A stretch of 32,000 bases of DNA. Origin: Candidatus Poribacteria bacterium (GTDB lineage Bacteria > Poribacteria > WGA-4E > WGA-3G). The notes under the pieces were generated by a model, which made no database searches, was not told where the DNA came from, and saw only the letters and a program-made list of their open reading frames with translations. Positions 2,905 through 12,130 of the stretch are shown here, piece by piece; the first letter of the stretch is position 1; each line of letters starts with the position of its first letter. The translations under genes were made by a program, and so were the position numbers. The DNA lies in assembly GCA_028818705.1 (NCBI GenBank), contig JAPPNJ010000161.1, positions 21,801 to 53,800 on the forward strand, given 5' to 3'.

Positions 2905-4629
2905 CTATGCCTGCGGGGGTGTTAGCAGGGCGGCGATGTCTGCTCGTAACCGAATATTCATCATCTGCTCAAAGTTGTCAACGCCACCAAAATCTCGATT
3001 AAATAATGCAGAAATGTCTAATCCCAAAGATATGCTAACCGTTAAATCTGCTTTGGCTTTTTCCCATTCGTTTTGGTGTAACCAAATTTGTGTCGCACGT
3101 ATGTAATAGGTGATGGCATCATTAGGCCAAAGTTGTATAACTTTGCTAAAGTCAGGAACAGCTAAGTCCGCTTTTCCAATAAAGAGGGAAGCAATCCCTC
3201 GATTTTTATACGCTTTTGCCAAATCATTATCGATCTCAATAGCTTTAGTATAGTCTTGGATAGCAAGATCAACAGAGCCCACTTCAAAGCGGGCTCTACC
3301 AAGATTATAATAAGCTTCAGCATAATCAGTTTTGAATTGGGTTGCACTTTTGAAATCTTTGATAGCAGCCTCAAAATTACCTATATTAGTGTATGCAATA
3401 CCTCGATTGTAATAAGCTGTAGGATAATTTTTTTTAAGTTGAATAGCCACATCATAATCATCAATTGCGCGGTTATATTCTCTCCTTCCAACGTAAACAT
3501 TGCCTCGTTGATTGTAGGCTTCAGCACATTCTTTGTCCAATTTTATTGCTGCATCACAATCTCTTATTGCAAGGTTGTACTCACCTTTGTTACAGTAAGC
3601 TCCGGCACGATTGTAGTAAGCTTGGACGTAGTCATCCTTGAGACGAATTGCTATGTTTAAATCCTCAATAGCACGATCTGCCTCACCTTTTTTGTTGTAG
3701 GCAGCACCACGATTACTATAGGCTTCAGCAAAATCTTGATCAAGTTCTATGGCTTTGTTAAAATCTTGAATAGCCTTGTCGATCTCGTCTTTTTCACTAT
3801 AAGCATAGCCTCGGTTATTATAGGCGTGGGGAAAGTCTCGTTTGAGTTGTATAGCTTTGTCAAGATCTTTGATTGCGCGTTCAATCTCGCCTTTTTCAAC
3901 GTAAGTATAACCGCGATTGTTATAGGCATTAGCAAAATCTGGATTGATTTTAAGTGCTGAGAAATAGTCTTTGATTGCAAGGCCAAATTCACCTTTTTCA
4001 CCGTAGGCAACACCGCGATTGGTATATGCTGCGGCATTATTGGGACTGAGTTCAATTGCCCGCGAGTAAGCTTTTAACGCTTCGTCTATTTGACCCAAAA
4101 TCATCATGAAGTTCCCTCGGTGGAATGCCAAGAAAGCAAGTGTTTCTATTTCCTCGGGTGTTACACTGGGTGAGGGCTTTGCTTGAGATTGCATTTCGTT
4201 TACAATCTTTCGGATGCCCTCTACCACACTCATCCACCCTTTACTCTCAGGGTTCCATTCGCTAATATCGTAAATTGGCTTGCCTTTTTCGGGAAGAGCT
4301 TGAAAGTCGCTAAGTTGATGATTTTGCCAATCGCAGTGTTCAAGGATAATCGGAATCACCCTTATGTTTGGATTTAAGGCAGCAGTCAACTCTTTATTGC
4401 AATTTTCGGAAGCAAGACTATACGGACAAGTAAGGTAGAGTAGAATATCTGAATCGGCAAGATTGTTGAAAATCGCATCCCGCCATTTATCACCCGGTAG
4501 AATTTCGTTGTCGTGCCAGACATCAATTAATCCGTTTTGCTTCAGGACAGCAAGGTAGGTTTTCAATTTATCCTTTGCTTCTGAATTTTTATGTGCATAG
4601 GTAATGAAAATCTTTAGCCATTTATTCAC
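2905..4629 (-). CDS. TIR domain protein with about 11 C-terminal TPR repeats
   Basis: The N-terminus FITYAHKNSEAKDKL...VWHDNEILPGDKW...ILLYLTCPYSLASENCNKELTAAL fits the TIR_2 pattern, including the conserved Glu (E80, codon 4390-4392). It is followed by regular 34-aa units (AYxNRGxAYxxKGExDxAIxDxxKAIxL). GTG start with GGAGGG 8 nt upstream. Confidence 0.85.
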   Translation of the reverse strand: MNKWLKIFITYAHKNSEAKDKLKTYLAVLKQNGLIDVWHDNEILPGDKWRDAIFNNLADSDILLYLTCPYSLASENCNKELTAALNPNIRVIPIILEHCDWQNHQLSDFQALPEKGKPIYDISEWNPESKGWMSVVEGIRKIVNEMQSQAKPSPSVTPEEIETLAFLAFHRGNFMMILGQIDEALKAYSRAIELSPNNAAAYTNRGVAYGEKGEFGLAIKDYFSALKINPDFANAYNNRGYTYVEKGEIERAIKDLDKAIQLKRDFPHAYNNRGYAYSEKDEIDKAIQDFNKAIELDQDFAEAYSNRGAAYNKKGEADRAIEDLNIAIRLKDDYVQAYYNRAGAYCNKGEYNLAIRDCDAAIKLDKECAEAYNQRGNVYVGRREYNRAIDDYDVAIQLKKNYPTAYYNRGIAYTNIGNFEAAIKDFKSATQFKTDYAEAYYNLGRARFEVGSVDLAIQDYTKAIEIDNDLAKAYKNRGIASLFIGKADLAVPDFSKVIQLWPNDAITYYIRATQIWLHQNEWEKAKADLTVSISLGLDISALFNRDFGGVDNFEQMMNIRLRADIAALLTPPQA

Positions 4630-4698
4630 TCTTTTCCCTCCACAATTGCAATCTCATTTTTCGTTAAATTATACAATTCATACACCAGTTTATCAATC

Positions 4699-11800: not shown

Positions 11801-12130
11801 TTTTATCCATTTGGCACAGGCTTTGGCAATCGGTTTCTGTCGAAGTTGCTGATTGAGTGCTAAACCTGTGTCTGTTATGTCAAACGCTTTTTTGTCTGTA
11901 TTATTTGGATCCATACGTTTGACGAAATCGGGGTCCCCAAAAAGAAAACGAAGTTCCTCTATTTTGTTGAGGGAGTGTTGCATCTTTTCATAGGCATAGA
12001 TGGTGAAGTAGGCGGATACGATGGAGAGTGCGGAACCGTTCTTAATTTCTTGTTGTAGAAAATCGTGAACTGTTTCGCGGAGAAGGTTATCTCGGATACC
12101 GGATTTTAGGGATGTGTTTTTATTTGACAT
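8843..12130 (-). CDS. Phospholipase-D (HKD) nuclease domain fused to an SNF2-family helicase/translocase
   Basis: HKD motif [23 protein letters not shown], with the His codon at 11756-11758. SNF2 motifs are [26 protein letters not shown] and [10 protein letters not shown]. Helicase-C motifs are [40 protein letters not shown]. The C-terminal region of about 240 aa is unassigned. Confidence 0.9.
   Translation of the reverse strand: [1095 protein letters not shown]

Follow-up and report, generated by a model that had tools for sequence, protein, structure and literature searches.

A conserved SNF2 helicase-nuclease and adenine methylase gene pair, with an optional TIR-TPR gene, in a candidate defence island of Candidatus Poribacteria

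A 32,000-nucleotide stretch of DNA from a metagenome-assembled genome (MAG) of Candidatus Poribacteria, a sponge symbiont (contig JAPPNJ010000161.1; the whole stretch is referred to here as the window), carries a block of four co-directional genes on its minus strand. These encode a helicase-nuclease (HEL), a small helix-turn-helix protein (HTH), an adenine methylase (MT) and a protein combining a TIR domain with TPR repeats (TIR-TPR). A first-pass annotation had put the four genes forward as one composite defence system in which a methylation module is coupled to a TIR effector. Part of that proposal stands: HEL and MT form a conserved core, predicted to be restriction-like, while HTH is not part of it and TIR-TPR is facultative. 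The genes of the block, assigned from the open reading frame (ORF) list and Pfam, are as follows.

8843–12130, minus strand: HEL, PLD(HKD)-SNF2 helicase-nuclease, 1095 aa.
8379–8792, minus strand: HTH gene, 137 aa from an ATG also used by relatives.
4699–8280, minus strand: MT, Eco57I/PglX-like adenine methylase, 1193 aa.
2905–4629, minus strand: TIR-TPR, 574 aa, with a GTG start preceded by GGAGGG.

The gaps between successive genes are exactly 50, 98 and 69 nt, in agreement with the annotation, and none of the three contains a minus-strand terminator-like site. The mechanically called HTH ORF runs on to a GTG at 8873. Pfam, PADLOC and NCBIfam were run on the four block proteins and 20 further ORFs of the window, and bear out every domain originally assigned to the block (PLD-SNF2, HTH, Eco57I/PglX methylase, and TIR-TPR with its Glu); these domains are a direct reading of the proteins.

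HEL, which is 100% identical to a protein from a Candidatus Poribacteria MAG, matches Pfam PLDc_2 (1.4e-9), SNF2-rel_dom, ResIII and Helicase_C, and divides into two functional parts.

11582–11854, minus strand: PLD-family nuclease domain of HEL, residues 93–183 (Pfam PLDc_2, RE_NgoFVII).
9551–11389, minus strand: SNF2/SF2 ATPase-translocase core of HEL, residues ~248–860.

The nuclease domain contains a single HxK...GSxN motif (H125, K127, G142-S-S-N145), of which HxK and GSSN are retained in 28 of 31 aligned family members. With only one HKD motif, the active site is expected to form by dimerisation, as established for Nuc and BfiI. In the helicase core, motifs I, II, III, V and VI (GLGKT, DESH, SAT, TDCxSEG and QRxGRxDR) are invariant in all 31 members, and sequence matches in the PDB are to Snf2, CHD1L and RapA. 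The best PADLOC model, covering the full length of HEL, is PDLC01075 ‘C3a139 HKD+Snf2’ (2.7e-107), a protein cluster among candidate type III CRISPR accessory genes (PMC6546367). From these conserved catalytic motifs HEL is predicted to be the restriction (R) subunit of a two-gene core.

MT matches Pfam Eco57I (2.3e-28) and carries the motifs DPAVGSGAF and NPPY. Profile and fold searches return adenine methylases only, namely CamA, BrxX/PglX (almost end to end), M.BseCI and M.TaqI, and in Foldseek ~1080–1130 columns align with the PglX/BrxX structures 8zek and 9ewz; a single-sequence search of the PDB with MT gave no match. We predict on this basis a gamma-class N6-adenine DNA methylase with a specificity module, the putative modification/specificity (M/S) subunit.

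A scan with HEL, taking one genome per species, identified 34 loci with close relatives (56–92% identity), all from sponge-symbiont MAGs of Poribacteria, Latescibacterota and Chloroflexota; individual loci are cited below by number (L001 and so on). Of 33 informative loci, those whose sequence extends far enough downstream, 32, spanning the three phyla, have a relative of MT as the next large same-strand gene after HEL; the sole exception (L031) has lost MT and kept only a fragment of HEL. The HEL-then-MT order, with the family-specific N-terminal domain of MT described below, holds also in L054 and L056. Spacing between the two genes is ≤21 nt, or the genes overlap, in the Chloroflexota loci and L056; in Poribacteria the interval has taken up toxin-antitoxin pairs, GxxExxY genes and a 5-kb insertion (L014). 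Under the E-value limits used, database relatives exceed 8000 for HEL and 8000 for MT. Judged by this synteny, HEL and MT are the real conserved unit of the block, an uncharacterised and putatively restriction-like pair.

The loci also vary in their integrity and company. HEL or MT is split, interrupted or truncated in L004, L021, L030, L031, L032 and L033, with a 439-aa ORF lying within HEL in L030, and the module appears to decay often. A gene pair that recurs beside HEL comprises a Schlafen/AlbA_2 plus HATPase_c_4 gene and a ParA-like AAA_31 ATPase gene (L007:7710-9947, L008:7550-9832, L033:7689-9968, L013:15040-17294); in L013 it sits between an MT fragment and the full MT. In L055 (5316–10459) an MT relative of 59% identity has an AIPR (abortive infection) gene 14 nt upstream, in the place of HEL.

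Some findings speak against treating HEL and MT as subunits of one machine, and would better suit a rival reading in which MT is a complete Type IIG enzyme, methylase and N-terminal nuclease in a single chain, and HEL an independent single-gene defence that merely adjoins it. The best PADLOC models for MT are those of Type IIG restriction enzyme-methylases (REase_MTase_IIG, 3.6e-56), MT has methylase and specificity domain in one chain as Type IIG enzymes do, and the window protein carries a D96...E109-x-K111 pattern. Furthermore, helicase-nuclease fusions can defend alone, e.g. HmaA (PMC11232893), and because MT relatives exist away from HEL, in L055 with the AIPR gene and in L048 with a TIR-TPR gene, MT may act with other partners or by itself. 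The IIG models, however, cover only residues ~353–946, and the N-terminus in question lies outside them.

7531–8280, minus strand: family-specific N-terminal domain of MT, residues 1–250 (AlphaFold2 (AF2) model, pLDDT 86.9).

A Foldseek search of the PDB with this confident model returned nothing below E = 0.01 and no nuclease among its matches, while E109 is retained in only 23 of 32 family members and K111 in 14 of 32, that is, neither is conserved. On the model, the N-terminal domain is not demonstrably a nuclease; it shows neither a nuclease fold nor a conserved catalytic triad, which leaves the PLD domain of HEL as the pair's only conserved nuclease. A reading of MT as a proven Type IIG nuclease-methylase is unsupported, given the empty PDB sequence search, the profile and fold searches returning methylases only and the N-terminal model devoid of a nuclease. 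The near-constant position of MT behind HEL in three phyla, often with overlapping genes, also argues against two unrelated neighbours, and we regard a self-sufficient Type IIG enzyme beside an independent helicase as improbable.

The C-terminal region of MT behaves differently from the rest of the protein. Alignments of MT to its relatives by tblastn end near residue 925, and at least two classes of module are found beyond this point.

4702–5493, minus strand: swappable C-terminal specificity module of MT, residues ~930–1193, of the class ending ‘...EQVNFRLSRAKSSK’.
4626–4700, minus strand: relic of an earlier MT C-terminal tail, filling the 69-nt gap between MT and TIR-TPR and translating as EIDKLVYELYNLTKNEIAIVEGKE followed by a stop.

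The window-type C-terminus is matched by L014 only (62%); most relatives have a TaqI_C-type module ending ...EIDKLVYELYxLTxxEIAIVE. The relic at 4626–4700 is one base out of frame with MT, belongs to the class other than that of the window's present module, and is near-identical to the tails with which MT ends in L001 and L005. Its stop codon and the TIR-TPR start codon, a GTG, overlap (GTGA), and in L001 and L005 the stop of MT itself overlaps the TIR-TPR start. Read against these relatives, the relic is the footprint of a specificity-module replacement in MT, the swap and what it left behind being directly visible in the DNA. A promoter-like match (11/12) at 4696–4668, in the MT/TIR-TPR gap, was down-weighted as an independent promoter for TIR-TPR, as it lies inside this coding relic, which is conserved in relatives.

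Inverted partial copies of the MT C-terminus (158–229 aa) are found just after MT in L013:20733-23017, L019:15609-18341 and L025:14356-14832. A tyrosine recombinase gene (Phage_integrase, 1.3e-14) lies beside the L013 and L019 copies, and the contig of L025 stops short of any such gene; the inverted repeats checked, those of L013 and L019, are only 72–73% complementary. From its gene arrangement this set looks like a specificity shufflon. Genes with an Eco57I domain are 16-fold enriched among the targets of programmed inversion (PMC9881135). Taken at the level of sequence, the specificity module of MT is mobile and exchangeable.

The small gene between HEL and MT has a separate origin. HTH matches Pfam PF21716 dnstrm_HI1420 (27.1 bits, cut-off 27), HTH_26 and TIGR02684 (30 bits), and is present in 8 of the 34 loci, all of them Poribacteria. 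Directly before it in L003, L011 and L028 lies a RelE/ParE toxin of the TIGR02683 family (118–122 bits, cut-off 62.85), overlapping the HTH start by 4 bp in L003 and L028, and in L009 a fourth member of the toxin's ORF cluster precedes HTH. The window has no such toxin partner, the HEL/HTH gap being only 50 nt, and so does not contain the arrangement of HI1419/HI1420, in which the antitoxin is paired with an upstream toxin. Because the toxin is missing here though present in relatives, the HTH of the window is an orphan antitoxin. The identity of the toxin-antitoxin pair can be read directly from these matches, by which HTH is an antitoxin left from an HI1419/HI1420 (RelE/ParE-type; HigA-like) pair inserted between HEL and MT in some Poribacteria only. 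A regulatory role for HTH was considered and rejected in view of the RelE/ParE toxin ahead of it in relatives and its absence from most loci, and its inclusion as a component of the system is accordingly withdrawn.

The last gene of the block encodes a TIR domain (TIR_2, 7.5e-17, residues ~6–151) followed by about 10 TPR repeats (residues ~162–520). The putative catalytic residue Glu80 (E80) is in place, as it is in 98% of 110 homologues, and the protein matches the PADLOC ThsB model PDLC00420 at 2e-26. At its C-terminus lies a conserved tail of ~50 aa (window 2908–3072), with the pattern WEKAKADLT..MG.DI...F......FE...G..LP.DIAA.LTPP, which is common to TIR-TPR, FRG-TPR and other TPR proteins (L002, L005, L008, L011, L020, L027, L028, L030) and could be a docking motif. 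We refer to TPR proteins with such a variable N-terminal effector domain X collectively as X-TPR. TIR-II, a single protein with TIR and TPR, is a validated anti-phage defence in E. coli that needs its TIR active site (PMC11350192), and TIR-TPR shares, by architecture alone, the combination of TIR and TPR in one protein with the catalytic residue retained.

TIR-TPR follows MT in about a third of the loci. It does so directly in the window, L001 (truncated), L005, L007, L010, L020, L028 and L039, and one gene further on in L008 and L033. The position after MT is held by FRG-TPR in L002, L008, L011 and L027 (Pfam FRG 9.6e-13 in L002), and elsewhere by a Pycsar system (L030), DUF3644 (Caldilineaceae), GNAT (L003), unrelated genes or nothing. 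The Pycsar-like pair consists of a cNMP-binding plus CAP12/Pycsar TIR effector and a nucleotide cyclase (L024:17826-19457, where it is one gene further on from MT, and L030:18685-20319), and its presence here marks the site after MT as a variable defence hot spot. Fewer than half of the HEL-MT loci have TIR-TPR, and none of those from Chloroflexota does. The complete four-gene order on which the first-pass annotation had staked its hypothesis is otherwise confined to close relatives within Poribacteria (L005, L028 and L038/L039), and in this respect the proposal fails.

A similar picture emerges when homologues of the TIR protein are sought without reference to HEL. Of ten independent contexts found in this way, eight are without MT or HEL. 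MT lies upstream of the TIR homologue in L038/L039 and L048 only, and not in L040, L041, L042, L047, L049, L050, L051, L052 or L053. Scanning metagenomes with the TIR domain yielded just 6 loci, and the products listed by a protein search with this domain are all ≤260 aa, the short L048 call nevertheless aligning full-length at the DNA level. L054 (9001–16213) occupies the same chromosomal site as the window and contains HEL and MT but no TIR-TPR. Elsewhere in that 6.7-Mb genome, at L048 (5273–10707), an MT paralogue of 70% identity with no HEL nearby overlaps the start of a TIR-TPR gene by 4 bp; the latter is called as 245 aa yet its DNA aligns over 572 residues, so a frameshift or assembly error is possible. 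Co-inheritance of TIR-TPR with HEL-MT is unsupported by the identity patterns, which are incongruent (81% for HEL and 65% for TIR in L028, 77% and 92% in L005), although this is not decisive as effectors can recombine. On this comparative evidence TIR-TPR is an optional third gene and probably a stand-alone abortive-infection effector.

Against such independence stand several observations on the junction between MT and the gene that follows. The stop of MT and the start of the next gene overlap by 4 bp in L001, L002, L005, L028 and L048, and the window preserves a relic of the same overlap between the MT tail and the TIR-TPR start. MT followed by TIR-TPR recurs at no fewer than two chromosomal sites (at least 2) and in a second phylum, in the Latescibacterota locus L020. 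X-TPR genes lie directly after MT in 12 of about 33 loci (plus L033, one gene further on), and only 1 of 35 X-TPR ORFs, across 18 loci, is upstream of HEL. The link between MT and TIR-TPR is therefore real and non-random, is more than simple co-location, and fits functional coupling, so that this part of the earlier proposal survives alongside the eight of ten TIR contexts that lack MT.

These observations could be accommodated by a three-gene coupled system, with HTH excluded, in which HEL-MT would discriminate self from non-self by methylation and TIR-TPR (or FRG-TPR) would serve as a dedicated abortive effector or backup, docking through its TPR array or C-terminal tail and depleting NAD+ when restriction is engaged or inhibited. 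Besides the overlaps, the Latescibacterota order and the strong enrichment of X-TPR just after MT as against the upstream flanks, such coupling is favoured by the exchange of TIR and FRG on a common TPR-plus-tail scaffold at a single position, by the pairing of MT with TIR-TPR in L048 in the absence of HEL, and by the MT-like TaqI_C DNA-recognition domain that the TIR-TPR proteins of L007, L008 and L041 carry. It sits poorly with the loci that dispense with TIR-TPR, with the location of most TIR homologues elsewhere, with the shuffling of TIR alleles relative to HEL and MT, and with the ability of TIR-II to function as a single protein (PMC11350192).

The fusion proteins bear on the same question. 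In L007:17795-21876, L008:19698-22676 and L041:9983-15267 TIR-TPR is fused to a TaqI_C/MmeI_TRD-type DNA-recognition domain in proteins of 887–1283 aa, an architecture of which we know of no description. In L007 and L041 the next gene, with a 4-bp overlap, encodes an AAA_15/SMC_N ATPase, and in L051:9001-12909 the same parts are split into separate genes. The occurrence of these TIR-TPR-TaqI_C parts away from HEL and MT in L041 and L051 points to an autonomous module that brings its own ATPase, which again argues against a dedicated effector of HEL-MT. It is also unlikely that the fused TaqI_C domain of L007 and L008 reads the motif of the neighbouring MT, the two domains being only 27% identical. 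We consider a coupled three-gene system possible but doubtful.

TIR-TPR might alternatively have no role in immunity, being a ‘eukaryote-like’ repeat protein for interaction with the sponge host, through TIR mimicry or manipulation of host NAD+, that lies beside defence genes by chance. The window and nearly all of its relatives come from sponge-symbiont MAGs and TPR proteins are very numerous around these loci. TPR and ankyrin proteins are in general over-represented in sponge symbionts, and TIR proteins of bacteria can act as virulence factors. TIR-TPR, however, lacks a signal peptide, its first TIR strand beginning at residue 6, and the family is found among toxin-antitoxin pairs, Pycsar, ABC/AAA_15 ATPases and restriction-modification genes. 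TIR moreover alternates with FRG, a domain associated with defence, and the placement directly after MT is not random. A host-directed function seems to us very improbable.

The block recalls several known systems without belonging to them. Of the components looked for, DrmA, DrmB, PglZ, BrxC, BrxL, DUF499, DUF3780, DUF4391 and ThsA, none was present among the scanned ORFs of the window, from which several ORFs of 150–240 aa were left out. The resemblance to class 1 DISARM and to BREX noted at the outset holds, as does the absence of the defining partners of both. Like class 1 DISARM, the block contains an SNF2 helicase (DrmD-like), a PLD nuclease (DrmC-like) and an Eco57I-type adenine methylase (DrmMI-like), with partial PADLOC matches of HEL to DrmD (2.6e-35) and of MT to DrmMI (1.8e-15). 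Unlike DISARM, it has the PLD nuclease fused to the SNF2 protein and neither DrmA, a YprA-like DEAD helicase, nor DrmB (DUF1998) in the window, and HEL scores 142.7 bits against a cut-off of 610 with NCBIfam DISARM_DrmD. With BREX it shares the length and overall fold of PglX/BrxX in MT, a variable specificity module and weak matches of HEL to BrxHI/HII (1.7e-24). PglZ, BrxC, BrxL, BrxA and BrxB are nevertheless absent in the window, the block has a classical nuclease (PLD), and MT reaches only 39–41 bits with the NCBIfam PglX models, whose cut-offs are 400–500; the curated thresholds for DpdE and ZorD are also missed by wide margins.

Closer in their helicase are the Type-2 BR (BREX-related) systems, composed of a DUF499 ATPase, an N6-methylase, an HKD-Swi2/Snf2 helicase and DUF3780, the last in 98% of loci (PMC12839542). 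Here too an N-terminal HKD nuclease sits on a Swi2/Snf2 helicase, proposed to be the restriction effector, and the methylase is proposed to protect self DNA (PMC12839542), but neither DUF499 nor DUF3780 was found in the window. Type III, ISP and I restriction enzymes likewise combine a methylase and specificity module with a helicase-type motor and nuclease, a combination predicted here from sequence; the motor of HEL is however SNF2 rather than Res/HsdR-type, its nuclease PLD rather than PD-(D/E)xK or Mrr, and the methylase is Eco57I/PglX-like. A plasmid cluster contains an SNF2/PLD (HKD) helicase that is a full-length HEL homologue of ~37% identity, together with DUF4391, a ~650-aa DNA methylase and a ~1000-aa DEAD/ResIII helicase; DUF4391, the shorter methylase and the Res-like helicase have no counterpart in the window. 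Such full-length homologues (~37%) are found on 173 plasmid records, in hosts that include E. coli, Enterococcus, Listeria and Acinetobacter, and the cluster was seen in L044 (an E. coli IncF plasmid), L045 (E. faecium) and L046 (Methanomethylovorans).

As for the TIR protein, its likeness to TIR-II (PMC11350192) lies in its architecture, TIR and TPR in one protein with the active-site Glu retained, whereas the window's family is set apart by its conserved tail at the C-terminus and by its position behind a methylase gene. Despite the match to the ThsB model, the block is not Thoeris, because ThsA (SIR2 or Macro/SLOG) is not found in the window. An arrangement comparable to HEL-MT appears in a table of Milman et al. 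(2023), which gives two ‘Cj0031-like Type II RM’ (restriction-modification) genes with a PLD plus SNF helicase gene immediately upstream (PMC9881135). By its description this is apparently the same two-gene arrangement, with programmed inversion of the specificity region, and it is listed in that table only, neither named nor characterised (PMC9881135). The HEL-MT pair has thus been noted in the literature before and never named or studied. An SNF2 plus PglX-like dyad also occurs next to YprA helicases in ARMADA and DISARM. From their component genes, the block is not DISARM, BREX, Thoeris or Type-2 BR, the pair falls outside any named system, and HEL-MT is best described as a minimal, nuclease-fused variant of a recurring helicase-methylase theme.

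Taking these points together, the explanation we favour, with somewhat more confidence than doubt, is a layered defence island made up of a HEL-MT core, an inserted antitoxin and TIR-TPR as a co-expressed second layer. The core would be a two-gene, ATP-dependent restriction-modification-like system. MT would methylate adenine at N6 within a motif set by the exchangeable C-terminal module and so mark self DNA, while HEL, a double-stranded-DNA translocase of the SNF2 type whose N-terminus bears a single-HKD PLD nuclease, would be loaded or licensed at unmethylated sites, translocate at the expense of ATP, and cut once the PLD domains of two HEL molecules dimerise. The closest analogues of such action would be the Type III, Type ISP and Type I enzymes and the DrmD/DrmMI/DrmC part of DISARM. 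We infer a physical interaction between HEL and MT, cutting that is sensitive to methylation, and protection against phage. HTH would be a surviving antitoxin with no role in the system.

TIR-TPR is a member of a family whose proteins vary in their N-terminal effector (TIR or FRG) and share a TPR array and a conserved tail, and is most likely self-contained, the TPR array sensing infection and TIR, whose NADase activity we also infer, hydrolysing NAD+ via Glu80 to bring about abortive infection. The gene lies at the 3' end of the operon and would ancestrally have been coupled in translation to MT, and it is on account of this position and ancestral coupling that we place it as a co-expressed second layer and not as the effector of the methylation module.

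The surroundings of the block agree with the defence-island setting first proposed, the Uma2, DUF433 and PIN families being confirmed.

12236–12913, minus strand: Uma2-family gene directly upstream of HEL, optional context (Pfam Uma2 9.9e-30).
1445–2540, minus strand: toxin-antitoxin context, comprising DUF433 at 2238–2540 (Pfam 6.9e-25), a 92-aa ORF at 1851–2129 and PIN at 1445–1894 (Pfam 1.6e-9).

Six Poribacteria loci (the window, L002, L011, L027, L028 and L029) have a same-strand Uma2 gene 16–105 nt 5' of HEL. The gene is missing from L001, L005, L018 and L024, and the loci without it include some at the same chromosomal site. L052 has a similar set of PIN, TIR-TPR, DUF433 and DUF5615 genes without HEL and MT. 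The remaining scanned ORFs belong to housekeeping (PrmA, DnaJ, GrpE, PcrB, SpoU, UbiA, LpxD, BamA and others) or to toxin-antitoxin and Uma2 families. GC content is 0.38–0.40 at 3–6 kb as against 0.46–0.50 in the housekeeping part of the window, so that the block, which had been described as AT-rich, is only moderately so and mainly at its 3' end. In a search for mobile-element boundaries, the window yielded no tRNA, no Rfam match and no flanking direct repeats. The spacer between TIR-TPR and DUF433 holds two copies of a 44-nt repeat (2666–2709 and 2809–2852, 84% identical) rich in CGCGGATT, and spurious N-terminal ORF extensions in L008 and L020 are translated versions of similar repeats. A 324-aa ORF at 310–1284 (plus strand) has no family match in Pfam or NCBIfam, and a 296-aa ORF at 13106–13996 (minus strand), between a conserved SGL gene and Uma2, has a weak cytochrome P460 match; neither occupies this position in related loci.

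HEL-MT emerges as a compact and widespread module in which the ‘SNF2 helicase + PglX-like methylase’ dyad, buried elsewhere in DISARM, BREX types 2 and 3, ARMADA and BR systems, is pared down to two genes and comes with a clearly recognisable nuclease. It could on that account offer a manageable setting in which to learn how those larger, poorly understood systems distinguish foreign from own DNA and cut it. The module swap in MT, the relics and the inverted spare copies illustrate the way in which such systems acquire new targets, and the TIR-TPR or FRG-TPR gene, recurrent but optional at the operon's end, provides a test case for mere co-location versus mechanistic coupling. More tentatively, and in our view against the odds, the effector-TPR-tail proteins (TIR-TPR, FRG-TPR) may be a new class of accessory effector wired to a methylation-based system; these could dock on MT or HEL by the ~50-aa tail or the TPR array, and the TaqI_C fusions could read a DNA motif directly. 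Were this so, NAD+ depletion would follow when foreign DNA without the modification is detected or when a phage inhibits restriction, giving a restriction-like module with a built-in abortive-infection arm and, in the fusions, a TIR protein guided by a DNA-recognition domain.

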